A stretch of 64,000 bases of DNA from Candidatus Eiseniibacteriota bacterium. GTDB taxonomy: Bacteria; Orphanbacterota; Orphanbacteria; Orphanbacterales; Orphanbacteraceae. The notes under the pieces were generated by a model, which saw only the letters and a program-made list of their open reading frames with translations, ran no database searches and had not been told where the DNA came from. Shown here one piece after another: positions 4,475 to 56,700 of the stretch. Each line of letters opens with the position of its first letter. Position 1 is the first letter of the stretch. Position numbers and translations under genes: made by a program. The stretch is taken from contig JBDROZ010000070.1 in assembly GCA_043809585.1 (NCBI GenBank), forward strand, positions 15,122-79,121, in the 5' to 3' direction.

Positions 4475-4492
4475 TGGCACCTCCCATGCGTA
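4475..4492 (+). promoter_or_regulatory. Candidate sigma-54 (-24/-12) promoter TGGCAC-ctccc-ATGCG upstream of the secreted metalloprotease
   Basis: TGGCAC at 4475-4480 and GC at 4488-4489 give exact GG-N10-GC spacing; predicted TSS ~4501, GGAGGG SD at 4508-4513 and ATG at 4518. Confidence 0.4.
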
Positions 4493-16576: not shown

Positions 16577-16591
16577 TGGCATGAGACTTGC
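16577..16591 (+). promoter_or_regulatory. Candidate sigma-54 promoter TGGCAT-gagac-TTGCC upstream of mglA-like gene
   Basis: TGGCAT at 16577-16582, TTGC at 16588-16591, exact GG-N10-GC spacing; predicted TSS ~16603, ATG at 16651. Confidence 0.45.
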
Positions 16592-16650
16592 CCTGATTTT
16601 GAACTCCCAACTTGCAAGGTTTGCGCCGAACGCGATCGGAGGCTTTGAAC

Positions 16651-34311: not shown

Positions 34312-34977
34312 CTAGCGTCGCCGGACCGTCAGCCGAAGAGCGGGCAGGTCGCCGATGGTCGCCACGACCTCGTCCCCCTCCACGAGGGGGCCGACGCCTT
34401 CGGGGGTGCCGGTGAGGAGAAGGTCCCCCTCTTCGAGGGTCATGTACCGGGAAGCGTGGGAGATGAGTTCGGCGGGGTCGAAGACCATTCGGGAGGTGCT
34501 CGCCTTCTGCCGCACCGCGCCGTTCACGGTGAGGGACATCACGAGGTCTCGCGGGTCCGGCACGGTCGAGGCCGGGGCGAAGTCGCCCACCGGCGCGGAC
34601 CCGTCGAATCCTTTCGACATCGTCCACGGCCGCCCCCCTCTCTTCGCTTCCGATTGAAGGTCCCGGAGCGTGAGGTCCAACGCGATGCCGTAGCCGGCGA
34701 CGAGATCGGGAGCGTCCGCGGGAGAGACGTCCTTCCCCCCCGCACCGAGAAGAACGGCGAGCTCGAGCTCGTGATGAAGAAGTCCGAAGGAGGCCGGTAC
34801 GAAGAGACCGCCGCCGTCCGGCCGGACGACGGCGGTTCGCGGTTTCAAGAAGAAGAAAGGTTCGTCGGGGACCGTCTCGCCCATTTCCCCGGCGTGGGCG
34901 GCGTAGTTTCTCCCGACACAGAGGACCTTGCGGATCGGGAAGTCTTCTCCGCCGAGACGGACCGAGCCGACGGTCAA
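34312..34977 (-). CDS. Fumarylacetoacetate hydrolase (FAH) family protein
   Basis: KVLCVGRNYAAHAGEMG...FFLKP...LDLTLRDLQ...TGTPEGVGPL motifs of FAH-fold hydrolases/isomerases. Confidence 0.75.
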   Translation of the reverse strand: MTVGSVRLGGEDFPIRKVLCVGRNYAAHAGEMGETVPDEPFFFLKPRTAVVRPDGGGLFVPASFGLLHHELELAVLLGAGGKDVSPADAPDLVAGYGIALDLTLRDLQSEAKRGGRPWTMSKGFDGSAPVGDFAPASTVPDPRDLVMSLTVNGAVRQKASTSRMVFDPAELISHASRYMTLEEGDLLLTGTPEGVGPLVEGDEVVATIGDLPALRLTVRRR

Positions 34978-36950
34978 GGGGCGTCGCTCCTGACGCGCAC
35001 GACCGCCTCGCCCGTCGCCGTCACGCCGTCGGCGGTGATCGCCGTCGCCCGGATCGTCCCCTCGCCCCCCGGCACGGTGCCGAGGAAAACCACCGGGGCG
35101 GGTCCGGAGCCGTCGTCCGGAATCGGAGGCACCGGGGTCGAGCCGCCGCTCGGGTCGCCCCCCGGGCGGGCGTCGAGGGAATCGTCGTAATCGGGAAAGT
35201 GCGGGCCTTCATAGGGGACGAGAGCCCCGATGTTCCCGACGAGCTCCCACTCCACGTCCACGCCCCACATGAGGTCGCCCCGGGTATCGAAAGCGTAGGC
35301 GAAAACGACCGCGCTGTCCCCGGCGGACGCCTCGACCGGGTTCGGCCGGATCTCGACCCTGCTGAGCGCCGGAGCCGGCTCGATTCTCACGGGAACGCTC
35401 TTCACGATGACATTGTTCGACAGGACGTCGGTGATCGTGACAGTCACGACCCCCTCCCCTACATTCTCGGCCCGGAGCCAGGCGCCCTCCGGCCCGGGGA
35501 GCGGCGATCCGTCCGGCGGCCTCGGCATGTCGGGATCCCCGCCACCCCCCTGCCCCGGCTCGGGGCCGGTCGTCCCCCCTTCGCCGAAGCCGTCGTCGCC
35601 GAAGTCACCGTCCCCCCAATCGCCATCCGGCCCCATCCACGGAATCGCGAAGGGCTCGATCGTTCCGAGATCCGCCGGCGTGACCGACCACTCGTACTCG
35701 AGGTCCTCCATGGAGCGGTCCCACTCGTTCAGACCCCGCGCGAAGAAGTAGCCCCCTCCGCCCACGGTGAGCAGCGCGTCTTCCGGGCGAAGGTCCGCCG
35801 AGGTCAACTCGCCCCGGTCGTACACCGTGACATAGACGAAGGTCCGCCAATCCGCCCCCTCGGCCTGCACCGTAATGCTCCCCTCCGCCTCGGGGCTGAT
35901 GTCCGGGTTCGCCGTGAAGCGGGCGAGGCGCACCGCGTCCGGATCGACCGGAAACGGCGGGAACACCGGCCCCTCCGGCGGAACCGGGTCCGTCGGGTTG
36001 CCCGGTCCTTCATCGTCCGGGTCGCCGGCGAAGTCGCCCTCTACGGCGCCCCCGCCCCCGCCCATCGGGTACCCATGGTCGATCCACATTTCATTGAGGA
36101 GCCACTCGAGGATGTTCGCCCGCTCGTCGGCGGGGAGGTCGTCCGCCGCCACGATCGTTCCGATGCCGGAGGGAAATACCCCCCAGAGGAGGTTCGCATC
36201 GGCGTCGACGTGCCCCGCCCCGTTGACCGCCCACGCGGCGAGATATCGCTCGCCCCCCGCGGGGATTCTGAATCTCCACGACGGCCGGAGTTCGATCCGC
36301 ACCACGTCGCCGTCGGCGACCACTTCGATCGGCGCCTCCGCCCGGACGTCGTCCCGGAAAGACGCGACGATCGTCCCCCGCCCGACGGCGGTGCCGATGA
36401 AGATCCCCTCCCGGGAGATCACGCCGATCGGCCTTTCGGAGCGGATCGACCAGGTCGGCCGGTAGCCGATGGCCGGATAAGAGCCGTCCTCCATCGCGTA
36501 GAGGCCGCCCGCCCAGAAGTGCGCGCTTTCGAGAATGCCGACCCGCGCCCCGTCCGGGTAAATGCCGAACTCGCCCAGCACCGCGTCCCGCGGAAGGACC
36601 GTGATGTCCACGCGCACCGTGTCGCCGCCGTGGACGCTCACCTCGATCCGGTTGCTTTGATAGGAGGACCCGGCCCCGGCGTCGACCACGACCGTCACGT
36701 TCCCCGACTCGAGCCCGTCGAAAACGAAAGACCCGTCGGCGCCGGTCACCGTCGTCCGGTCGGTCCCTTCGATGCGGACCGTGACGCCGGCCAGGTTTTC
36801 GGGGGAATCGGAACCGTCGGTCACCTGGCCGCGAAGAACGCCCGGGCCGTCCTCCGGATCGACCGGACCGCTCTCGTTGCCGGAGCACGCGAGAAGAAGC
36901 ATCGAAAGAAGAACAACGGGAATCACCGGAAACAAACGCGGCAACCGCAT
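34974..36950 (-). CDS. Lipoprotein with carboxypeptidase-regulatory-like and bacterial Ig-like (Big) domains
   Basis: MRLPRLFPVIPVVLLSMLLLACSG lipobox, CarboxypepD_reg-like GVTVRIEGTDRTTVTGADGSFVF, repeated Big-like beta-sandwich segments; its stop overlaps the FAH start by 4 bp. Confidence 0.55.
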   Translation of the reverse strand: MRLPRLFPVIPVVLLSMLLLACSGNESGPVDPEDGPGVLRGQVTDGSDSPENLAGVTVRIEGTDRTTVTGADGSFVFDGLESGNVTVVVDAGAGSSYQSNRIEVSVHGGDTVRVDITVLPRDAVLGEFGIYPDGARVGILESAHFWAGGLYAMEDGSYPAIGYRPTWSIRSERPIGVISREGIFIGTAVGRGTIVASFRDDVRAEAPIEVVADGDVVRIELRPSWRFRIPAGGERYLAAWAVNGAGHVDADANLLWGVFPSGIGTIVAADDLPADERANILEWLLNEMWIDHGYPMGGGGGAVEGDFAGDPDDEGPGNPTDPVPPEGPVFPPFPVDPDAVRLARFTANPDISPEAEGSITVQAEGADWRTFVYVTVYDRGELTSADLRPEDALLTVGGGGYFFARGLNEWDRSMEDLEYEWSVTPADLGTIEPFAIPWMGPDGDWGDGDFGDDGFGEGGTTGPEPGQGGGGDPDMPRPPDGSPLPGPEGAWLRAENVGEGVVTVTITDVLSNNVIVKSVPVRIEPAPALSRVEIRPNPVEASAGDSAVVFAYAFDTRGDLMWGVDVEWELVGNIGALVPYEGPHFPDYDDSLDARPGGDPSGGSTPVPPIPDDGSGPAPVVFLGTVPGGEGTIRATAITADGVTATGEAVVRVRSDAP

Positions 36951-37132
36951 GATTGGCCCTCCTAGGGGGTTACAACTATTCAGTTTACCGCGCCGTTGCT
37001 CATCCGTCAATCGACGATTTGGTGCGTTTCGGCCCGATCTACCGTTCCGTTTCGTGCACCGGCGCCGATTTGGCGTCCTCGGCCTCTTTCTCGGGGTCGG
37101 TCCGACACTCGGACCGGAAGGCGCTACCTCAC

Positions 37133-37219
37133 GTGGGGACGCCGAGTTTCGGCAGCACCACCCGCGTGAGGAGGAAGTAGATCACCAGGGCGCCGACGAT
37201 GTAGAGTCCATTCATTCCG
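37133..37219 (-). CDS. Candidate 28-aa single-TM micro-protein (MNGLYIVGALVIYFLLTRVVLPKLGVPT)
   Basis: GGAGGAG SD 6 nt upstream of the ATG; hydrophobic helix; last ORF of the minus-strand operon; below the 60-aa cut-off of the ORF track. Confidence 0.3.
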
Positions 37220-37235
37220 GTTCTCCTCCATCCTC

Positions 37236-37457
37236 TCATCGCACGGAGGCCGCGGACCGCGCGTCCGGACATTCCGGCTTTCCGGTCGCCTTCAGGATTT
37301 TGTCCAGCGGGCAGAACAGGGTGAAGGCCGATTGGATCATGTTCAGGCCGATGAACACCGTGAAGAGCGGGGCGTAGGGCGTCACGAACCGACCGATCGC
37401 CAGGCTTCCGAGGATCATCAGGCCCACCACCACTCGAAACATCTCCTTCTGGGTCAT
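37236..37457 (-). CDS. DUF2892-family small membrane protein (YgaP-like)
   Basis: Two TM helices and the conserved IQSAFTLFCP motif (QSAFTGxCP) of DUF2892. Confidence 0.55.
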   Translation of the reverse strand: MTQKEMFRVVVGLMILGSLAIGRFVTPYAPLFTVFIGLNMIQSAFTLFCPLDKILKATGKPECPDARSAASVR

Positions 37458-37469
37458 CGCTCTCTCTCC

Positions 37470-38723
37470 TTAGAATGTATACCGGATTCGGGTGTACAGG
37501 TTGTCGTTCTTGTCGAATTGTCCGAACTGGGTCCGGTCGCTTTGCCCCTCGAAGAGGTTGCCGCCCGCGGCGATCTCCACCTCGTCAGTCACTTTGTAGC
37601 TCACCATGGGGCGAACGTAGACGTCCTCGTCCGTGGGCGAGTAGAACGTGAAAAGGGAGAGGCGGATCGTGTGATAGAGCGCCATCTTCTCGAGCCGGAG
37701 CGTCACGATCTGGCGCAGCTCGTCCTGCTCCCGCGCCCCCTCCGGCAGACCCGCGGCGTATTTGTCGTGGTCCCCCATGAACTCGCCGTACCACTGGACC
37801 GTCGCGTTCAGGTCGGTGGCGAGCTGCCGTTCGTACCCGGCGAGCATCCGGACCTCTGAGTTCGCCACCATCGGATCGCTCCCGTTCCTGTCCTCGTCCG
37901 AGTCGTAATACCCCGCCTCGAGCCAGTAGACGCCGCCGAAGCCCGTCGACCGGGCGCTCGCGCCGTACACCGCGAGGTTCGGATAGTAGGGAAGCCCGCC
38001 CCCGGTCATCCCCGCGGGGGTCTTCCAGAAGCCCCGGTACCCGTAGAGGGAGAAGTTGTAATCGCCGAAATACTTCGAGAGCCGGAGCGCGATCTCCCCC
38101 TCCTCGATCTCGTTCTCCGGGGCCGTGGGCGGTCCCATGACGCCCGGCGGCGAGTAGAAGGAGAGCCGAGAGCCGTCCGGAAGGCGGTCGGGCGTGAAGG
38201 CCGGCGTCGCCACGAGGTCCACCGTGAAGGGGAGGCCGAAGACGCCGAGCCGCACCGCGTCGGCAGGGGCTTTCAGATACTGGTCCTCCCGGCCGATGAA
38301 GAACGACACCCAGTCCTTCGGAAAGAGGTCGTTCACGAAGATCAGGTCGCCCGTCCCCCAGGTGAGGGCCTGGCGCCCCGCCTTCACCTCGAGCCGGTCG
38401 GCGAGGGTGTTGAACCGGAGAAAGCCCTCGCGGATTTCCCACCCCGCGCCGCCGCCGAGCACGTTGTCCTGCATGATGTCGAGCCGGAGGAACGCCTCCC
38501 CCCGGTCGCCGTAGCTCGAGAGCTTCAGCTGCGCCCTCGTCTCGTTCAGCGTGTAGTCGCGCACATCGTCGAACCTCGGGTCGTCGGCCGTGCGGAGACC
38601 GTAGCCCCCTTCCACGAAGCCGTGCCAATCCACGTCCGCGAATGAACGGCCCGGCAGGGCGGCCGCGACCAGGAGGACCGCCGCCGTCAACATTCGGTTC
38701 CTCGTCTTTCGTCGCCGATTCAT
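37470..38723 (-). CDS. Outer-membrane beta-barrel protein (porin/alginate-export-like) of the MMPL operon
   Basis: Signal peptide MNRRRKTRNRMLTAAVLLVAAALPGRSFA, long amphipathic beta-strands, C-terminal YTRIRYTF aromatic terminus typical of OMPs. Confidence 0.5.
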   Translation of the reverse strand: MNRRRKTRNRMLTAAVLLVAAALPGRSFADVDWHGFVEGGYGLRTADDPRFDDVRDYTLNETRAQLKLSSYGDRGEAFLRLDIMQDNVLGGGAGWEIREGFLRFNTLADRLEVKAGRQALTWGTGDLIFVNDLFPKDWVSFFIGREDQYLKAPADAVRLGVFGLPFTVDLVATPAFTPDRLPDGSRLSFYSPPGVMGPPTAPENEIEEGEIALRLSKYFGDYNFSLYGYRGFWKTPAGMTGGGLPYYPNLAVYGASARSTGFGGVYWLEAGYYDSDEDRNGSDPMVANSEVRMLAGYERQLATDLNATVQWYGEFMGDHDKYAAGLPEGAREQDELRQIVTLRLEKMALYHTIRLSLFTFYSPTDEDVYVRPMVSYKVTDEVEIAAGGNLFEGQSDRTQFGQFDKNDNLYTRIRYTF

Positions 38724-38746
38724 CGTCTCGTCTCCGTCTATCGTGA

Positions 38747-39556
38747 CTACTGGATGTACTCCGAGGGGGGAGCCTTCAGGTAGCGCTCGGTGAACAGGCC
38801 CTCGTCCACGCCGATGTCGTATCGGATGTCCTTGAACTCGACCAGCGTCGAGTGTTCTTTCTTCACGTTGGTCATGCGGCGCTTCGAGATGGTCGTGAAG
38901 CCGTCCACGTCCTTGATCTCTTCCGCCTCGAAGAGGCGCTCGAGCACACCCTTCGTGTCGTAGTACTCCTCGCGTTCCGGAAGCATGTTGTCCTTGCCGA
39001 TCCAGGTCAGCTTCCTCGCGAAGGAGTCCTTCTCCTTCGGCACGCTCTCGATCACGTAGAAGGAGCGGCCGTCTTTTTCCTCTTCCCGGAGAAGGGTGTG
39101 GTTGTCGTCGGTCCAGTGGCGGCCGGAGACGTCCTCGTAGGAGAAATCGCTCCCCACGAAGGACGAGCCCTTGTCGCTCGACGAGATTCGCCGGACCAGG
39201 TCGATCGCCGGAATGTAGATCCACCGCGAGTCGTCCTTCTCCGCTTCCTTCCACACCATGAAGGTGGTGCCGCGCACGTCGCCCGGCTCGAGGAAGTAGG
39301 TCCAGTACTTCTGGGCCCCGCCCTCCTCGAGGTCGAGGCGGAGCATCACGAACTCCCGGATCCGGACCTTCCCGTTCTTGTCCTTCAGCTCCATCGAGAC
39401 CTTCGCCTTGCCGTCGTTCCCCGTGTAGTAGAGGTTCAGGTGGGCGGTCTTCATGAGTTCCGCCGCGTCCTCCGCCGAGGCCGGGCCCGCGGCCAGGATC
39501 CCCGCGGCGAGCACCGCCGCCGTGATCAAGCCGAACAGGGTGTTTCCCTTTTTCAT
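38747..39556 (-). CDS. LolA-like outer-membrane lipoprotein-sorting protein family
   Basis: Signal peptide [28 protein letters not shown]; LolA_like fold signature (WIGKDNMLP..., DFSYEDV) of the type usually encoded beside MMPL transporters. Confidence 0.6.
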
Positions 39557-39578
39557 GGTTCTTGCTCCTTCCTGCTTC

Positions 39579-41936
39579 TTACGAACGGGCCCCGGAAGAC
39601 GCCGCCGAATCGGCCGCGGTTCCGGAGCGCTTCCATTGCTTCCGGCCGGCGAGAAACACCGGATTCATGAGCGAGAGAATCGCCGGGAAGGCGAAGAAGG
39701 TGGTGATGCCGCTCACCACCATGATCGCGAAAAAGAAGGCCCCCACCGTCACGTAGGGAACCAGGCTCGCGAAGAACATGGGGACGAATCCGATGGCGAT
39801 CACCAGGATGTTCCGCGTGATCGCCCGGGAGGGGGCCTCGAAGATCGCGGACATGGTCGCCTTGAAGTCGCCGGTCACCCGGTAGATCTCGCGGCTCCGC
39901 TGCAGGAAGTGGATCGCGAAGTCGATCGAGAGGCCGAGCGTGAGGGACGAGAGAACCGCCACGGGCATGTCGTACGGCTTCCCGATGAAACCGATGAGGC
40001 CGTACACCAGCGTGATCGTCGCGGTCAGCGGGATCACGGACAGAATGCCGAGCCGCACCGACCGGAAGAGGAAGATCATCATCACGAGCACCGTGAAGAA
40101 GCTGCCGAGCAGGGCCTTCATCATGCCGTTCACCATCCTCTGCTGCCAGATCACGTTGATGTACGACATGCCCGCCCACCGGGCGACGAGCCCGCCCGGC
40201 GGCGGGTTCCTCACGAGGAAGTCATCCGCCGACCGCACCACGCTGCTCACTTCCCTGTTCTCCCCCCGGTGCATCTGGACCCAGATGTTCGCCCGGTCCG
40301 ACTCGGGGGTGATGAACTTGAAGAGGTCGTCCGGCGAGCCCCCCGACATCTCGTACAGGAAGAGGTACTGGGCGATCTCCTCCCGCGAGTCGGGGACGAT
40401 CCCCTCCGCCGGGTCCCGTTTCAGCTCTTCCCGCACCTTCTTCACGATGTCCACGATCGACGTCGTGGCGCCCACGTTCGGGTGCTTGTCCAGGTGCTTC
40501 TGAAGGCGTTCCACGTACTTCATCGCCTCCGGGTCCTTCAGGCCCCCCTCCTCGCCCGACTGCACCGAGAGGTACGCGAGATAGGTGCCGGCCAGATGGC
40601 GGTTCATCACCTCGTCGGCGACCCGGAGAGGGTGCCCCGCCTTGAACCACTTCACGGGGTTGTCATTCACGACGATCTTGCTCACTCCGACCGCGGAGAG
40701 CAGGAAGACGAGCACGCCCACGACCACGATCGGCTTGTGGAATCGGAGCGCGAAGTCGCGGATGAAGTGCATCGATCGGCGCATCGCGGCGCCCCCCTCG
40801 CCGGTGGCCCCGAACTTCGCCAGGGTCTTCTTCGGCAGGAGCACCGCGTAGGCGATGTTGAACGTGACGGAGAGGAGCCACGCCGACGCGATGCCGAAGG
40901 CGACGAAGCCGCCGAAGACCTGTACCGGCGGGATCGGGGTCACGATCAAAGAAGCGAAGCCGACCACCGTGGTCAAAGATGTGAAGATCATCGGGATGAA
41001 AAGCTCGTCCATGGTCTCCACGATGGTCAGCTTCATGTCGAGGTGGCGCTGGTACCGTTCGTGAAACTCACTCAGGATGTGGATCGAGTTGAGCACCGCG
41101 ATCGGTATCAGGAAGATCGGAATCATCGAGGACATGATGTGGACCGTGTAGCCGAGGCCGATCAGAAGGCCCATGGTCCAGATCACGCTGATGACGGCGA
41201 CGATCATCGGGGCCGCGATGATGGCCGCGTTGCGGAAGAAGAAGAAGAGCAGGAGGAAGATCACCACGAACGCCGCCGGGGCGGAGACCACCATCTGCTT
41301 GAACATCTCGGCGCCGAAAGTGTCTTGGGCGAGGGGCATGCCGGCGAGGAAGTACTCCTCGTCGTCGCTGCCGAGCTCCGCGAGAACCCCCTCGATCTCG
41401 GTCGCCACCCGGTGGGAGACGTCTTTCGACTCGAGGGGCACGAAGATCGCCATGGCCTTGCCGTTGTCGGAGGCGAGCTTGCCCCGAAGCACCGGGTTCT
41501 TCTTGATCTGGGCGAGCACGCGGGCCGATCCTTCTTCGTCCCTCGGCGCCTCTTCCATGAGTGTCTCTACCCGGAGGATGCCCTCTTCGGTAGTGAAGAT
41601 GTCGTCCACGTCCGTGGGGGCGAGAAGGTCGTCATCGATAACGCCGTCCATCTCCCGGATCCGTTCGGTGATCTCGACGACCCGCGCGAGGGTGGCCGGG
41701 TTGAAGACGCCCTCTTCCTTCACGATGCCCACCACGAGGATGTCGTGAAGCCCGAAGACCTCCTTTACCTCATCGTGAAAGACGCGGACCTCCTCGTTCT
41801 CGGGGAGCATGTTCTCCGGGTCCGTGTCGATGTAGATCTTGGGGAGCTGAACGGCGAAGGCCACGGTCACGGCCAGAATCAGTGCGATGACCACCTTCGG
41901 ATGGTGCATGGAAAAGTCGACCAGGAACCTTTTCAC
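39579..41936 (-). CDS. MMPL-family RND superfamily exporter
   Basis: 785-aa 12-TM protein with two large periplasmic loops and duplicated 6-TM bundles; RND/MMPL motifs (GxSxDFxIHF, [24 protein letters not shown]); GTG start after a GGGAGGAAG SD. Confidence 0.8.
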
Positions 41937-41994
41937 TTTCCTGCTTCCTCCCGTGATAGAGCGGACGGTGTTTCGATTCGATACTCCACCCTAC

Positions 41995-42010
41995 TGCAAC
42001 CGGGGGGCCA
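41995..42010 (-). promoter_or_regulatory. Candidate sigma-54 promoter TGGCCC-cccgg-TTGCA driving the MMPL operon
   Basis: On the minus strand tggccccccggttgca gives GG-N10-GC with a perfect TTGCA -12 element; predicted TSS ~41984, GTG at 41936. Confidence 0.45.
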
Positions 42011-42103
42011 ATACACCGCCGATCCGTCCTCTAAACCACAAGCCATTGAAATCATTGCGAATAGTGTCTCGAAGACAGGTCGGGCCGGACTCCCTCGCTG
42101 CTG

Positions 42104-42160
42104 TTTTTGTTGCGCCGGCCCGGAATTGACGCAATATTCTGTTGCGCCGGGTCGCAACAA
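42104..42160. promoter_or_regulatory. Enhancer-like TGTTGCG dyads between the sigma-54 promoter and the activator gene
   Basis: Perfect inverted repeat TGTTGCG-N6-CGCAACA at 42140-42159 and TGTTGCG-N15-CGCAA at 42108-42134; ~100-170 bp upstream of the predicted TSS. Confidence 0.4.
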
Positions 42161-42221
42161 AGCGGAGACGTTTCCGGGGGGAACGAAACAGCGCGGACGG
42201 CCCGGAAGGAGGAAGGGATCG

Positions 42222-43616
42222 ATGAAGGCGGACGTCGGCAACCTGCAGGTTTGCATGGCCCAGAAGGCGAACATGGAGGCCATCTTTCACAGCGTGGCCG
42301 ACGGCATTCTCACGGTGGACGCCCACCTCGTGATCACGAACATCAATCATGCCGCCGCCCGGGTGATCGGCGTCGAACCGGCGGAGGCCGTCGGCAGGCC
42401 TCTCCGGGAGGTCCTGCTCTGCCGGCTCTGGCGACTCGGCCCGATGCTGAAGGAGACCATGGAGACCGGCGAGGGGGTGGCGGAGCGCGAGAACATCCTC
42501 GTCCGCCCCGACGGCAACGAGATCCGCGCCCTCCTGACGACGAACCGCCTCCTCGACAGCGACGACAAAGTGGCGGGGGCGGTGATCATCCTCCGCGACA
42601 TCACCCACCTCCGGGAACTCGAGGTCCGCCTCGAGGACCGCGCCGCCCTCCACTCCCTCGTCGGGAAGAGCCATCGGATGCAGGAGGTCTATACACTGAT
42701 CGAGCAGGTGGCGCCGACGGACTCGACGGTGTTCATCCAGGGGGAGAGCGGCACCGGGAAGGAGCTGATCGCCGACGCGATCCACCGGAGCAGCACCCGG
42801 CAGGGCGCCCCCTTCATCAAGGTCAACTGCTCCGCCCTCTCCGAGAGCCTCCTCGAGAGCGAGCTGTTCGGGCACGTGAAGGGCGCGTTCACGGGGGCCA
42901 CGTACGACCGGAAGGGGCGGTTCGAAATGGCCACGGGCGGGACGATCTTCCTCGACGAGATCGGCGACCTGACCGAGCGCATCCAGGTGAAGCTGCTCCG
43001 GGTGCTCCAGGAGCGGGAGATCGAACGGGTGGGGGACACGAAGGTCATGAAGATCGACGTCCGCGTTCTCGCCGCCACCCACCAGCCACTGAAAAAGCTC
43101 GTGGACGAGGGCCGCTTCCGCAAGGACCTCTTCTATCGGCTGAACGTGATTCCCATCCACGTCCCCCCCCTCCGGGACCGAAAAGAGGACATCCCGGCCC
43201 TCGCGTCGGTCTTCCTCAGGGAGCTGTCGGCGCGCATGAGGAAGAAGCTCGAGAAGATCTCCCACGACGCCTTGCGGGCGATGATGGATTACGGGTGGCC
43301 GGGCAATGTGCGGGAACTCCGGAACGCCTTGGAGCACGGGGCGGTGAAAACCCGGGGCCCGGCGATCCTCCTCGAGGACCTGCCGGGGGAAATCGTCTCG
43401 GAGACGGCGAAGATCGATTCCGCCTACAGCGCCGGCCCGACCGGGCGCGGCTGGGGAAGCGTCACCCCCTGGGGCGGCCCCCGGGACGAGGGGAAGGCGA
43501 TCCGCACCGCCCTCGAAAAGACCGGGTGGCACCGGGGCAAGGCGGCCCAGATCCTCGGCATCGACAGAACCACGCTCTGGCGGAAGATGAAGCGCCTCGG
43601 CATCGACATGAATTAG
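42222..43616 (+). CDS. Sigma-54-dependent transcriptional activator (PAS sensor - AAA+ sigma-54 interaction - Fis-type HTH)
   Basis: GESGTGKE Walker A, GAFTGA sigma-54 contact motif ([16 protein letters not shown]), DEIGDL Walker [11 protein letters not shown]-terminal HTH ([22 protein letters not shown]). Start at ATG 42222 after GGAAGGAGGAAGGG; the upstream 920 codons of ORF 39453..43616 are antisense to the MMPL operon. Confidence 0.85.
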
Positions 43617-43620
43617 CGTC

Positions 43621-43680
43621 TCCCGCGCAACAGCACGAATGTTGCATTCTGTTGCACCCGAAAGCCGCGCAACAACGCCG
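43621..43680. promoter_or_regulatory. Second array of TGTTGC dyads immediately downstream of the activator gene
   Basis: CGCAACA-N7-TGTTGCA (43626-43646) and TGTTGCA-N12-GCAACA (43652-43678); shares attctgttgcRcc with the upstream array. Confidence 0.35.
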
Positions 43681-43843
43681 CTGCCGGCGCCGCCCCTGCC
43701 AACTCTTTGTTTTACCTTCTATTACAAGAAAGACCGTGGTTTGTCATGGTTCCTGCAATTACCTCGGGGCGAACGGAAGAGAGCGGCGGGCCGAGCGCCG
43801 CGATGAGAGCGAAGAAGGAAACGAGTCCCAGGAGAAGGTAACC

Positions 43844-44185
43844 ATGTCGGAAGCGATCAACATCAGCGATACCCAGTTCGAAGCGGAAGTTCTCCAGTCG
43901 CCGACCCCCGTGGTCGTGGATTTCTGGGCTCCCTGGTGCGCCCCCTGCCGGATGGTCGCTCCGGCGATCGAGAGTCTGAGCCGGGAACTGAGCGGAAAGG
44001 TGCGTTTCGTGAAGATCAACGTGGACGACAACCCGATGCAGGCCTCCAAATACGGCGTGCAGGGCATCCCCACGCTCCTCTTCTTCCAGGGGGGGGAGCT
44101 CGTGGACAGCGCGGTCGGCGCCTACCCGGAGCCGATGCTCCGCGAGAAGGTGACCGAGACCTTCGGAATCGCGGAGACGAACTAA
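43844..44185 (+). CDS. trxA: Thioredoxin
   Basis: VVVDFWAPWCAPCRMVAP...YGVQGIPTLLFF, the thioredoxin fold with a WCAPC variant of the WCGPC active site. Confidence 0.8.
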   Translation: MSEAINISDTQFEAEVLQSPTPVVVDFWAPWCAPCRMVAPAIESLSRELSGKVRFVKINVDDNPMQASKYGVQGIPTLLFFQGGELVDSAVGAYPEPMLREKVTETFGIAETN

Positions 44186-44386
44186 CCCAAGACCGGCCGC
44201 GGGGGGACCGGTTCCCGTAGAGGCTCCCCCGCCAAGTTGATCGATAGATTGGGCGAGACCGAGAACAGAAGCACAAGCAACGTACTTCATGATCTCGAGC
44301 GGGCAAGCCCGCGATCCTCCCGAGAAGCCGGGCCGCGTCGTATGGGCGCGGCCCGCTTCTGTATTCCGCTCGAATCCGCGTGCTTT

Positions 44387-45775
44387 CTACCGCTCCCCGT
44401 CGGGCTCGTCCCCCTCCTCGAGCCTCTCCCCGAATGCCGGGGCCGCAAGGAAAAAGAAGATCAACCCGAGATAGTTGTGGTGGAAGATCCGGGAGAAGAA
44501 GAGGAAGAGAAACAGGAAGAGCGCGAAGGAGACGACCGCGGACGACGCCGTCCGCTTCTCGAAGTGCCGCCGGAGCAGCAGCCACCCCAGGGGCAGCACA
44601 ACGGTCAGGTGGAAGATCCAGAACGGAAAGTAATGATACCGGCTCGGGACCAGATGAAACACGTTCACCAGACTGGCGATCCCGTAGCCCGGCGTGCCGC
44701 CGAGCGGATAGCTCACCTCCGACAACCCCACGTTGAACGCGTACGTATCGTCGAAGAACGCCCCCGGGTCCCAGAGAAAGAAGGGAAGCGCGAGAATCAC
44801 GAGCGGCGCGAGACCCGGCAGGGCCTTCTTCCCTCCCCGCCGGAGAACCGCCCCCCATCCCCCGGAGCCCCTTCCCGCGAGCACCACGAAGAACGGCACG
44901 AACAAGAACGCGAACTGTTTCGTCGCGCAGGCGAGCCCGAGAAGCAGCGCCGCCCCCCGCCACCGCCCGGTGATCATCGCGTGAACCGCGGCCACGAGCA
45001 GCACCGCCACCACCACGTCGTTCCGGCCCTCCACGATGTGGGGCACCAAGAACGGGTTGAGGCCCCAGAGGGCCGCGAGGGCGAGCTGGCGGTCCGGGTC
45101 GGCGCTCCACCTCGTCACGAAAAAGAAGGGCGCGAGAAACAGAAGCAGATAGAGAACCCGCCCGTCGTACCCGCCGAATGCCGCCTCGCCCGCGGCGAGA
45201 AACGGTGCTTGGACGAGAAAAGAGAAGGGGAAGTACGGGTGGTGGATGATCGCCGGATTGCCCGGGCCCCAGTCGAGTTCCGCCATCGGCGTCGACCGGT
45301 AGTCCGCGGCGTACGGGTTCGTTCCCCGGAACAAGAACCGAACCGCCTCTTCCGTCTGGATCACGCCGCCGTCGTGGGCGTGCCCCCTCGGTCCGACGGC
45401 AAAACGGAGCCCGATTTCCGCGATCGCCGGCAGCACCACGATCCACGCGACCAGGAGGCCGAGGAGAACCGCCCGAACCCCCGTGCGGGTCTTGCGGAAG
45501 AGAACGCCGAGCGCGGTGAGAGAGTACAAGAGAAGCAGCCCGAGCCCGACGGCGACCCGAAGAGCGCCGATCGGATTCCGCACCAGGCTCGTGTCGAAGA
45601 ACCGGGCCCATCCCGAACCGGTCGCGCCGAGATCCGCGCTGTCCCGCCCGAACTCGAGCTGCCCCTCGGAGGGGAGGTTCAGCATGAGCAGGAGGAAGAG
45701 AAGGACGGCGTCGACCGGGAATCCTCGAACCCCCGTCCGCCCGGCGCCCCGCGCTTTCATCGCTCCGTCGTTCAC
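44387..45775 (-). CDS. Polytopic integral membrane protein, DUF2029/GT87-like (putative glycosyltransferase)
   Basis: 11+ TM helices, Phe/Leu-rich, loop motifs reminiscent of GT-C mannosyltransferase-like proteins; family call is tentative. Confidence 0.4.
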   Translation of the reverse strand: MNDGAMKARGAGRTGVRGFPVDAVLLFLLLMLNLPSEGQLEFGRDSADLGATGSGWARFFDTSLVRNPIGALRVAVGLGLLLLYSLTALGVLFRKTRTGVRAVLLGLLVAWIVVLPAIAEIGLRFAVGPRGHAHDGGVIQTEEAVRFLFRGTNPYAADYRSTPMAELDWGPGNPAIIHHPYFPFSFLVQAPFLAAGEAAFGGYDGRVLYLLLFLAPFFFVTRWSADPDRQLALAALWGLNPFLVPHIVEGRNDVVVAVLLVAAVHAMITGRWRGAALLLGLACATKQFAFLFVPFFVVLAGRGSGGWGAVLRRGGKKALPGLAPLVILALPFFLWDPGAFFDDTYAFNVGLSEVSYPLGGTPGYGIASLVNVFHLVPSRYHYFPFWIFHLTVVLPLGWLLLRRHFEKRTASSAVVSFALFLFLFLFFSRIFHHNYLGLIFFFLAAPAFGERLEEGDEPDGER

Positions 45776-45995
45776 GGCCCACTCCCTTCCGGCGGTCGGT
45801 CATTCAGAGTAGGCGACGGTCCGGTAGGAACGCCACACCTTTTCGAACCGGATCCGTGGCCCGGAGAACGAGGAATCGTCGAGGAGACCAAAACCACGAA
45901 GGAACGATCGAACCGATCGTCGGTTCCCTTCCGCTCATCGTGTTCTTCGCGGCTTCTCTTTCCGGGTCCGAGCGCGGCGGGCGGGCGGCAAGAAG

Positions 45996-47609
45996 CTACT
46001 CGGTCACCTTCATGACCACCATCGTGATGTCGTCCTTGACCTTGGCGCCGTCGATGAACGCCATGATGTCGTCGTAGAGACCGTCGGCGATCCGTTTCGC
46101 CCCGAACTCCGCCCGTTCGGCGAGCGCTTTCCCCAGGCGCTCCGTCCCGAACAACATCCCCGACGGCGAACGGGCCTCGACGATGCCGTCCGTGTAGAAG
46201 AGGACCACGTCGCCGGGCGCGAGGTCCCGCATGCCCACCTCGTACTCCACGTCTTCCTGGACGCCGAGGATGAGCCCTTCCGCGTCCAGGGTCTCCACGA
46301 GCCCCGTCTCCTTCCGGTAGAGGACGGGGGTATTGTGGCCGCCGTTGGCGAAGAGGAGGCGCCGGTTCCGAAGGCCGAGCCGCGCCGCGAATAGAGAGAT
46401 GAGCAGGCTCGACGCGGTGAGGTCCCGGTAGAGGAGGCGGTTCGCCCGCTCGAGAACGACGCCCGGGTTGTCCGAATCGCTCGCCGACGCGAGGAGCGTC
46501 GCCCGGGCGGTGGTCATGATCAGGGCCGCTCCGAGATTGTGCCCCGTCACGTCCCCGATGAGAACACTCACGGACCGGTCCTCCCGAACCACGTACCCGT
46601 AGTAGTCGCCTCCCACGTTGTCGGCGGTCGCGCACCGCCCCGCGAGATCGACCCCCTCCACGACCGGCGCCTCCTCCGGGAGCAGGGACGCCTGGATTTC
46701 CCGGGCGAGTTCGAGGTCCCGTTTCATTCGGGCCGCCTTTTTCAGTTCCTCCACGAGCCGGGCGTTGGCGATCGCCGTCGAAGCCTGGGAGGCGACGGCC
46801 GAGACGAGCTTCTCTTCGCCGCTCGTGAACGGCGCCCGATCCCGCTTCGTCAACACGATGGCTCCGACAACGCCGTCCGCTTCGACCGATGACGACCGGA
46901 GGAGGGGGACGGCCAGCACCGACTCGATCTTTTCCTCACCGGCGTCCCGGAGGAAGTTTTCCTCCGGCGGCTTCTCCTCCGTCACGATCATGGCCCGCCG
47001 GCTTCGGATCACCTCCGCGAGGAAACCTTCCTGGTCCGGATCTCCCGCGGAGTAGCGACAGCGATCGCAACAGCCTCCTTGGGGGGACTTGATGGCGAGG
47101 GGCGTGCAGCGCTTTCCGTCGTAGAGAAGAACGGAACCGCATCGGAACGTCAGGATCGATTCGAGCCGGTCGAGAAGGGTCTCGCCGATCTTCTTCTCGT
47201 CGAAAAGGGCGGCGAACTGATCGCTCAGATCATAGAGGAGGTTCACCTCCTCGTACTTTTCCGAGATTTCCTCGGCCAGGCTGCCGAACTGGTATTCGGA
47301 GTCGAGAATCCCTTCGGCCACCATCGCGACGAGCCGGGCCACGTCCCGCGCATCGGAGCGGCCCTTGCCGGCGCCCCGGACCCTCACGTATCCGACACCC
47401 CGATTCCACGTATGCAGGGGGAACTCGTGGTCCGTGAATTCCTTCCCCCCGGCGGGCGCTCCGTCGCCCCAACCGGCGACCTTCACGCCCTCCAAAGAGA
47501 GGACGTCGACGGCGACGGCGTGAAGTTCGCACATCTCCGTCACGAAGTGGGGGAAACGGCTGTCCGCCGCGAGGGATTCCACTCCCGCGATCGACTGGCG
47601 GTCGTCCAT
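45996..47609 (-). CDS. SpoIIE/RsbU-type PP2C serine phosphatase with N-terminal GAF domains
   Basis: C-terminal PP2C signature (DVTGHNLGAALIMTTARA...LFYTDGIVEA...DDITMVVMK) preceded by GAF-like segments. Confidence 0.7.
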   Translation of the reverse strand: MDDRQSIAGVESLAADSRFPHFVTEMCELHAVAVDVLSLEGVKVAGWGDGAPAGGKEFTDHEFPLHTWNRGVGYVRVRGAGKGRSDARDVARLVAMVAEGILDSEYQFGSLAEEISEKYEEVNLLYDLSDQFAALFDEKKIGETLLDRLESILTFRCGSVLLYDGKRCTPLAIKSPQGGCCDRCRYSAGDPDQEGFLAEVIRSRRAMIVTEEKPPEENFLRDAGEEKIESVLAVPLLRSSSVEADGVVGAIVLTKRDRAPFTSGEEKLVSAVASQASTAIANARLVEELKKAARMKRDLELAREIQASLLPEEAPVVEGVDLAGRCATADNVGGDYYGYVVREDRSVSVLIGDVTGHNLGAALIMTTARATLLASASDSDNPGVVLERANRLLYRDLTASSLLISLFAARLGLRNRRLLFANGGHNTPVLYRKETGLVETLDAEGLILGVQEDVEYEVGMRDLAPGDVVLFYTDGIVEARSPSGMLFGTERLGKALAERAEFGAKRIADGLYDDIMAFIDGAKVKDDITMVVMKVTE

Positions 47610-47761
47610 GGCTTTCGATGCTCCGGCCCCGGGGGGGCGTGACACATTCCAACTTCAATCGAATCATCGGCATAGAACACCAATCCCTTGACGGAAAAGG
47701 GAAGGCCGCTCGCTCCCCGGCGGACGGATGGAGACAAAATCGGATGAAAGAAGGCGGTTTG

Positions 47762-56229: not shown

Positions 56230-56700
56230 ACCCCGGTAGAAATTGCTATAACACAAACATTGTCATTTGATTACGGGATCGCATTTTGGACGAGCCTAAA
56301 ACGAATCGTTCACAATAATAGTCCCTTCTTCTTCTGAATAAGATCTCTAGTAGTAGTAGTAGGGGCTGCGGATATGTGGACAAAAGCACGGGAAGCCGTC
56401 TCTCTCTCGAATTCGAGGTCCTCCGTCGAGTGAGTCGTCCACGGGCTTGTGGACGACCTCCGGAGAAAGGGACGACTTGTCCACCGTCCCCCGGGGAGGA
56501 CCGATCCGTCCACCGATCGGGCCTCTTCTTCCACGAGTCATGCACCGGTTTGTCCACGGGCGATCTTCCTGTCCTCTTCCTTGGTGTTTTCCGTTACTTT
56601 CGTGGTCTTCCTCTCCGGAGAAGGAACCCTGAAGCATTATGTGAGCATTAGTGAATGCGAGCACTGCGGCAGATGACGTGCCATCGCGCGAGCGTCAGCG
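56230..56700. promoter_or_regulatory. Chromosomal replication origin (oriC): AT-rich unwinding element plus DnaA-box cluster between dnaN and dnaA
   Basis: AT-rich 56240-56360 (tgctataacacaaacattgtcatttg..., aataatag, tagtagtagtag). DnaA-box variants: TGTGGACAA 56375-83, TCGTCCACG 56445-53, TGTGGACGA 56458-66, TTGTCCACC 56487-95, CCGTCCACC 56516-24, TTGTCCACG 56560-68. Confidence 0.55.

Follow-up and report, generated by a model that had tools for sequence, protein, structure and literature searches.

The window analysed here, a 64-kb stretch of DNA (64,000 nucleotides) from a Candidatus Eiseniibacteriota bacterium, encodes a sigma-54 activator, that is, a bacterial enhancer-binding protein (bEBP), whose gene is flanked on both sides by short arrays of TGTTGC(A/G) repeats. 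Beyond the upstream array lies a divergent operon headed by an MMPL/HAE3 transporter gene, and beyond the downstream array lies trxA, which encodes a thioredoxin (all coordinates are collected in Table 1). The activator matches the Pfam families for a PAS domain (1e-12) and the sigma-54-interacting AAA+ domain (PF00158, 1.9e-72), with AAA_lid present, and carries at residues 423-459 a C-terminal Fis-type helix-turn-helix (HTH) DNA-binding domain (PF02954, 5e-14) as found in the regulators of sigma-54/bEBP systems. Its GAFTGA loop is kept across 20 orthologues with the exception of a single GSFTGA (P0018). The protein is identical to an NCBI protein from a Candidatus Eisenbacteria metagenome-assembled genome and reached no equivalog cut-off in the NCBIfam scan, and in the literature on a GTTGCA motif or a thioredoxin-controlling bEBP we found no description of this regulator.

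All of the array elements named in the original prediction, which was made from the letters of the window, were recovered at their positions, and the 13-mer attctgttgcRcc indeed recurs in both arrays (42136-42148 and 43646-43658). The looser of the two dyads described upstream is present as well, although its right arm reads GCAAT and not GCAAC. The distance of the upstream array from the predicted transcription start site (TSS) of the MMPL operon at ~41984 had been given as -100 to -170 and is corrected here to ~-124 to -175, while the downstream array, which begins 10 bp past the activator stop codon (43614-43616), does lie 170-218 bp before the trxA ATG (43844), corresponding to ~-94 to -142 relative to the predicted trxA TSS (~43768). 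Seven of the nine copies of TGTTGCR in the window fall within these two 50-bp arrays; the window total of nine compares with 4.9 expected, and 8 of 100 shuffles contain at least as many. Dyads of the form TGTTGC-N(4-20)-GCAACA number two in the window vs 0.00 in 100 shuffles, and the core GTTGC is rarer across the window than its base composition would predict (62 vs ~133).

We collected 171 loci encoding relatives of the activator (referred to by L numbers), with close orthologues drawn from the protein database and contig look-ups; a scan of metagenome contigs for closer relatives returned none above 47% identity. At the upstream array the comparison centres on the predicted sigma-54 promoter of the MMPL operon, TGGCCCCCCGGTTGCA, which has the GG-N10-GC (-24/-12) geometry of sigma-54 promoters and is both the best sigma-54 match in the window and its only match to TGGCAC-N5-TTGCW at one mismatch. 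The three GTTGC/GCAAC half-sites of the upstream array are 103, 135 and 148 bp from its -24 element, distances that are reproduced within 3 bp in L161, L162, L163 and L168, and equivalents of the promoter with the form TGGCCC-N5-TTGCR are present in L161, L162, L165, L166 and L168. In an alignment of the seven orthologous upstream spacers, which average 46% identity, no blocks are invariant other than GTTGC, GCAAT..T, GTTGC and the G..AC of the closing GCAAC. The distances to the MMPL promoter and their recurrence in orthologues thus support the earlier view of the upstream array as an enhancer. Matches to the sigma-54 consensus at up to three mismatches are in total not above chance in the window; other matches at two mismatches, TGGCACCTCCCATGCG (4475-4490, plus strand), TGGCATGAGACTTGCC (16577-16592, plus strand) and TGGCACGTCATCTGCC (56668-56683, minus strand), have no GTTGC arrays near them.

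On the other side of the activator gene, trxA is a single gene, convergent with a GT87-like gene. No canonical GG-N10-GC element is found between the downstream array and trxA (43680-43844), which was overlooked when the thioredoxin was first suggested to belong to the regulon. The interval contains a predicted sigma-54-type promoter, TGTCATGGTTCCTGCA, with GT in place of GG at -24. Its pattern, TGTCAYG-N4-YTGCW, occurs once in the window vs 0.02 expected, and TGTCA.G..T..TGC is invariant in all ten trxA-carrying loci, the window included. The element agrees with the sigma-54 consensus (YTGGCACG-N4-TTGCW) in spacing and at every conserved position but one, as each of the ten loci has T where the consensus has the second G at -24. 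The downstream half-sites are 115, 101, 91 and 73 bp from the TGTCAT element of the window, and every one of the ten loci has GTTGCA sites 80-146 bp upstream of TGTCAYG-N4-YTGCW. The orthologous spacers mostly contain two direct GTTGCA copies ~10 bp apart, with little else conserved besides the element, and in four genomes two sites are located 100-101 and 90-91 bp before it (exactly 101 and 91 bp in three).

The arrangement is also maintained when its surroundings change. In L001, L161, L162, L163, L165-L168 and L170 (60-76% protein identity) trxA again follows the activator gene, and this order survives the replacement of the MMPL operon by other genes (L163 and L170). Where L162 has 456 bp extra and L168 an inserted DUF2231 gene, the array is found 450-540 bp past the activator stop codon with its distance to the trxA promoter unchanged, and both array and element are absent in L002, L169 and L171, where trxA does not follow the activator. 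In L024, the locus of a distant Nitrospinaceae relative, a YgaP-like gene and trxA come after three GTTGCAAC sites and a GG-type -24/-12 element. The occurrence at ten of ten loci, the array following trxA after insertions and its absence without trxA back the proposal that the downstream array places trxA in the regulon. Since these genomes have MMPL promoters of the GG type, the polymerase specificity of this lineage is ordinary. The GT element of trxA most likely works as a sigma-54 promoter, probably a weak one; no other step of the model is less secure.

Several other signals around this promoter were considered. Reading TTGTCA as a sigma-70 -35 box was rejected, as the sequence 16-18 bp downstream has no conserved -10-like hexamer, and so was the sigma-54-like match CAGCACGAATGTTGCA (43631-43646) inside the downstream array, which is composed of two half-sites, carries AG at -24 and lacks conservation. 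An alternative register of the trxA element, GG-N5-GC, is missing in L001 and L161. Between the array and the trxA promoter runs an A+T- and pyrimidine-rich tract, caactctttgttttaccttctattacaagaaag (43700-43735), in a genome of 66% G+C, and its minus-strand sequence AAACAAAGAGTTG (43700-43712) is one base off the integration host factor (IHF) consensus WATCAANNNNTTR. Similar T-rich tracts are present in L161 and L165, and the tract may bend the DNA or be bound by IHF. The thioredoxin itself has the active site WCAPC in the window, L161, L162, L163 and the Nitrospinaceae locus L024, and the usual WCGPC in L165-L168 and L170. Genes for a GT87-like glycosyltransferase and a GAF-SpoIIE phosphatase (44387-47645, minus strand) are located 3' of trxA, an order kept in L167; a GT87-like gene follows trxA in L001, L163, L165 and L168 as well, and in L161 a GDPD gene intervenes.

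Among the collected loci, clusters of at least three GTTGC half-sites adjoin activator genes in many phyla. With few exceptions, a strong GG-N10-GC promoter directed away from the cluster is found 88-187 bp from the cluster centre. Taken over 235 sites, the half-sites have the consensus (T)GTTGC(A/G). Most of the loci share the recognition-helix body TTLWRKMK, the two residues preceding it vary, and the arrays track these residues: 27 of 34 loci with D-R have arrays, as do 5 of 10 with N-R, compared with 1 of 25 with S-R, 1 of 14 each with D-K and H-P, and none of 17 with G-R. This co-variation of array and recognition helix is the best substitute at hand for a binding assay. The 203 distances from half-site to -24 element measured at 68 promoters peak at 80, 91, 102-103, 113-114, 124, 134 and 146 bp and are periodic (Rayleigh p ~4e-14 at 10.75 bp). 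Set against these peaks, the window has distances of 91, 101 and 115 bp on the trxA side and of 103, 135 and 148 bp on the MMPL side. Such periodicity implies helical phasing, as expected of activators that loop DNA, and repeated sites ~80-200 bp upstream of a promoter and in phase with it are characteristic of sigma-54/bEBP systems.

In light of these comparisons we think it probable, with good confidence, that the TGTTGC(A/G) arrays serve as two enhancers for the activator encoded between them, driving the MMPL operon and trxA. The activator would bind the repeats with its HTH domain, and from the upstream enhancer an activator oligomer would loop the DNA to bring it to sigma-54 RNA polymerase at TGGCCCCCCGGTTGCA, spending ATP to open this promoter and thereby turning on the MMPL/LolA-like/YgaP-like operon. 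The downstream enhancer would act likewise on the trxA promoter TGTCATGGTTCCTGCA, so that thioredoxin would be co-induced with the exporter. What is directly observed is the anatomy of the sequence and its conservation, together with the association of the motif with the recognition helix and the helical phase of the sites. A number of points weigh against the two-enhancer model: the binding of the activator to the arrays is deduced from comparative sequence, neither rpoN nor a sequence encoding an RpoN box is present in the 64-kb window, the loci were collected partly via the peptide TTLWRKMK, which enriches the collection for one type of recognition helix, and the Rayleigh p overstates independence, given the ~10-bp spacing of sites in an array and the relatedness of some loci. 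In addition, the trxA element departs from the strict GG-N10-GC consensus with its GT, the Salmonella site described below speaks for binding of sigma-54 only and not for transcription, and the hexamers of the activator's putative promoter in the window (TTGCGC/AATATT) are weak and were not called by a generic sigma-70 scan. From the same comparisons we infer both the use of the GT promoter by sigma-54 and negative autoregulation.

The explanation that competes most directly with a sigma-54 promoter before trxA accepts that the activator binds both arrays and attributes TGTCAYG-N4-YTGCW to a different regulator, as its operator, or to a different sigma factor, as its promoter, in which case the downstream array would affect trxA otherwise (e.g. 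by repression or as a roadblock) or not at all. The GT where sigma-54 promoters have GG, and the lack of a canonical GG-N10-GC within 43680-43844, are what one would expect from this explanation. However, the element's conserved positions coincide exactly, that base excepted, with the sigma-54 consensus YTG.CACG-N4-TGCW in its 16-bp -24/-12 geometry, the phased distance to the GTTGC sites is the same as for GG-type promoters in 58 other cases, no -10-like block is conserved after the element and the scan found no sigma-70-like promoter, and a table of sigma-54-bound sites in Salmonella (PMC3844500) contains a TGTCACG-N4-TTGCA site. We therefore consider this explanation unlikely.

It is considerably less likely still that the downstream array serves the activator gene, whether as a terminator or attenuator hairpin, as a second operator that loops with the upstream array in autoregulation, or as an enhancer acting on the MMPL promoter from 1.6 kb away. 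While an array that starts 10 bp after the stop codon and includes a weak terminator-like hairpin (43627-43645) would suit such a role, the RNA fold of 43610-43700 is no stabler than that of shuffled sequences (z = 0.0), terminator hits number 2 vs 2.6 in shuffles, and most orthologues have direct repeats that are unable to form a hairpin, so the suggestion that the array might terminate the activator gene did not hold up. Moreover, the array keeps its distance to the trxA promoter when it is 450-540 bp past the stop codon (L162 and L168), is retained alongside trxA in loci that lack the MMPL operon (L163 and L170) and is gone where trxA is. The candidate intrinsic terminator itself was rejected, as its stem of 6 pairs includes 3 G-C pairs, a clean T run is missing and there is no conservation as an inverted repeat; Rfam covariance models gave no matches at E <= 1 in 41800-44400. 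Finally, we give next to no credence to the repeats being functionless products of chance, composition or duplication. The total of TGTTGCR copies in the window (9 vs 4.9) is inside the shuffle range and would be compatible with this, but the clustering of 7 of 9 in two 50-bp stretches is extreme, two dyads stand against none expected, and the array sites are the only conserved blocks amid diverged spacers. As the sites also recur, helically phased, in many phyla, the comparative data already contradict an origin by chance.

Within the two-enhancer model, the upstream array may have a further role at the activator's own promoter. A putative sigma-70-type promoter of the activator gene overlaps upstream half-sites 1 and 2 and places the dyad at ~+1, and in orthologues TTGCAN-17/18 bp-AATATT is kept, mostly with TG ahead of the -10 hexamer and with the dyad directly after it; in L161-L164 the ribosome-binding site is directly 3' of the dyad. 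This arrangement is probably the activator's own promoter, overlapped by its sites. As the upstream sites cover this probable promoter, they probably limit synthesis of the activator. The generic sigma-70 promoter scan of 41900-44300 returned 0 sites. Autoregulation, which had been raised for the downstream array, is thus plausible for the upstream array and not for the downstream one.

The signal to which the activator responds may be a thiol or redox signal, sensed via the near-invariant Cys11. The N-terminal region has only two cysteines, Cys11 and Cys67, of which Cys11 alone is conserved among orthologues. It is part of a motif, GNLxVC(M/L), ahead of the PAS core (window 42222-42260), and the cysteine is kept in at least 90% of 20 orthologues; a resembling motif, xC(M/L)xxKENLEA, is present in L024 and L087. 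Cys11 is a candidate thiol sensor. A more far-reaching idea, which we regard as a long shot, is that the T at -24, invariant among the trxA promoters, has been selected and is more than a tolerated defect, and that Cys11 forms a thiol switch that is reset by the induced thioredoxin, giving a sigma-54 disulfide-stress feedback loop. If this is true, the T would weaken the closed complex and make occupancy of the trxA promoter dependent on enhancer-bound activator or on a second form of sigma-54. To our knowledge, disulfide-stress feedback circuits are known only with sigma-70-family and LysR-type regulators.

The gene order of the divergent operon is shared by L001, L161, L162 and L164-L169. 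In all syntenic loci the LolA-like gene is followed by a gene equivalent to that of the 413-aa protein, with products of 411-422 aa. The small open reading frame (ORF) at 37129-37215 is conserved with a 44-aa ORF after the divergent sigma-54 promoter in L163 (3018-3152, minus strand) and may encode an unannotated membrane micro-protein of the regulon. Homologues of the YgaP-like gene are the first gene past the GTTGC arrays in L010, L024 and L170, and the YgaP-like gene and trxA look like the most recurrent targets of the activator clade.

Table 1. Positions of genes, repeat arrays and predicted promoters within the 64-kb window.
Feature	Position	Strand	Details
Sigma-54 activator (bEBP), 464 aa	42222-43616	+	PAS, AAA+ with GAFTGA, HTH_8
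Upstream array	42108-42159		putative enhancer; TGTTGCG 42108-42114; CGCAA(T) 42130-42135; perfect 20-bp dyad 42140-42159
Upstream dyad TGTTGCG-N6-CGCAACA	42140-42159		left arm 42140-42146, right arm 42153-42159
Upstream second half-site GCAAT	42131-42135		reverse orientation, imperfect
Downstream array	43626-43674		putative enhancer; CGCAACA 43626-43632; TGTTGCA 43640-43646; TGTTGCA 43650-43656; (C)GCAACA 43668-43674
Predicted sigma-54 promoter of the MMPL operon, TGGCCCCCCGGTTGCA	41995-42010	-	predicted TSS ~41984
Predicted sigma-54-type trxA promoter, TGTCATGGTTCCTGCA	43742-43757	+	GT not GG at -24; predicted TSS ~43768
Putative sigma-70-type activator promoter	42110-42138	+	-35 TTGCGC 42110-42115, 17-bp spacer, -10 AATATT 42133-42138
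trxA, thioredoxin, 113 aa	43844-44185	+	WCAPC active site; PF00085 5e-31; TIGR01068 118 bits vs cut-off 96.8 (NCBIfam)
Divergent target operon, whole	34312-41936	-	extent inferred
MMPL/HAE3 transporter	39579-41936	-	Pfam
LolA-like protein	38747-39556	-	Pfam
413-aa protein	37470-38711	-	no Pfam/NCBIfam family; signal-peptide-like N-terminus
YgaP-like transmembrane protein	37236-37457	-	PF11127, formerly DUF2892
Small transmembrane peptide ORF	37129-37215	-	hydrophobic, ...YIVGALVIYFLLTRVVLPKLGVPT
CarboxypepD_reg protein	34974-37010	-	
FAA hydrolase	34312-34977	-	

With these data a motif, target genes and promoter coordinates are now proposed for a widespread, unnamed group of PAS-type sigma-54 activators that spans Candidatus Eisenbacteria, Gemmatimonadota, Nitrospinota, Desulfobacterota, Calditrichota, Zixibacteria and other phyla. 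The combination of thioredoxin, a YgaP-like protein and MMPL/LolA-like export in one regulon hints at a response of uncultured bacteria to envelope or thiol stress. The ten natural GT-for-GG -24/-12 promoters, each coupled to an enhancer, may help define the tolerance of sigma-54 and should be useful for promoter-prediction tools, which now reject sites of the GT type.

Control of thioredoxin genes by stress regulators is established in other bacteria, as SigR-RsrA controls trxBA in Streptomyces and OxyR controls trxC in E. coli. These systems share with the window a thioredoxin gene that is under a dedicated stress regulator and not purely constitutive, but they use a sigma-70-family extracytoplasmic function (ECF) sigma factor or a LysR-type activator where we propose sigma-54 and an AAA+ activator. 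The layout of the arrays resembles that of the classical enhancers: at glnAp2 and nifH several sites for NtrC or NifA, respectively, are located ~100-150 bp upstream of a -24/-12 promoter and act from one helical face by DNA looping, and at glnAp1 the sites overlap a sigma-70 promoter that the activator also represses. The number and distance of sites and the dependence on helical face are alike, and so are the looping and the overlap with a sigma-70 promoter as proposed for the window. In contrast, the NtrC site is TGCACC-N5-GGTGCA and the NifA site TGT-N10-ACA, whereas the dyad of the window is TGT-N14-ACA and its half-sites are direct as well as inverted, and the sensor is a receiver or GAF domain in NtrC and NifA as opposed to the PAS domain of the window activator.

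The GG dinucleotide is near-invariant at -24 of sigma-54 promoters. A parallel for the GT variant is listed in Table 3 of a sigma-54 ChIP-chip (chromatin immunoprecipitation on microarrays) study of Salmonella Typhimurium, where the site TGTCACGTATTTTGCATG upstream of clpP (STM0448) is enriched for sigma-54 (PMC3844500). According to this table entry, the site likewise has T for the second G of -24 in an otherwise consensus element, and it provides a precedent for the binding of sigma-54 to a GT site. It differs in being a single site in one genome, listed there with neither activator nor transcript, whereas the variant described here is present in 10 genomes, phased with an enhancer and located before one orthologous gene.

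Among characterised systems the nearest is OrpR (DVU2106) of Desulfovibrio vulgaris Hildenborough, a PAS-AAA+-HTH protein with sites on both sides of its own gene that drives two sigma-54 orp operons (PMC8359166). Both OrpR and the window activator are one-component PAS-AAA+-HTH regulators, and in both cases the sites flank the regulator gene and there are two flanking sigma-54 units, predicted ones in the window. However, OrpR has three conserved PAS cysteines, C52, C61 and C65 (C-x8-C-x3-C), and the binding site GGGCGYRTTTTGCGCCC (PMC8359166), and the window activator is without the three-cysteine motif. A search of the window for GGGCGYRTTTTGCGCCC gave 0 matches at up to 3 mismatches. The targets differ as well, being the orp genes for OrpR as opposed to the proposed MMPL exporter operon and trxA here. 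With its missing PAS cysteines, missing site and different targets, the window activator is not an OrpR. A C-x8-C-x3-C PAS motif like that of OrpR does occur in distant relatives (~40% identity; L020, L022, L028, L044, L046, L060, L071, L039, L043 and L145), whose targets are either orp-like (NifX/orange-protein-like and MinD-like Fe-S ATPase genes; L020, L022, L028, L046, L060 and L071) or HdrD/DsrK-like and multihaem cytochrome genes, and the enhancers of these relatives are GTTGCA arrays and not the published OrpR site. Compared with all of these systems, the mechanism proposed for the window is the classical one of bEBP, enhancer and sigma-54; what stands out is the newly defined motif for this widespread group of regulators, a proposed regulon that combines thioredoxin and an exporter, and the conserved GT variant of the -24 element.

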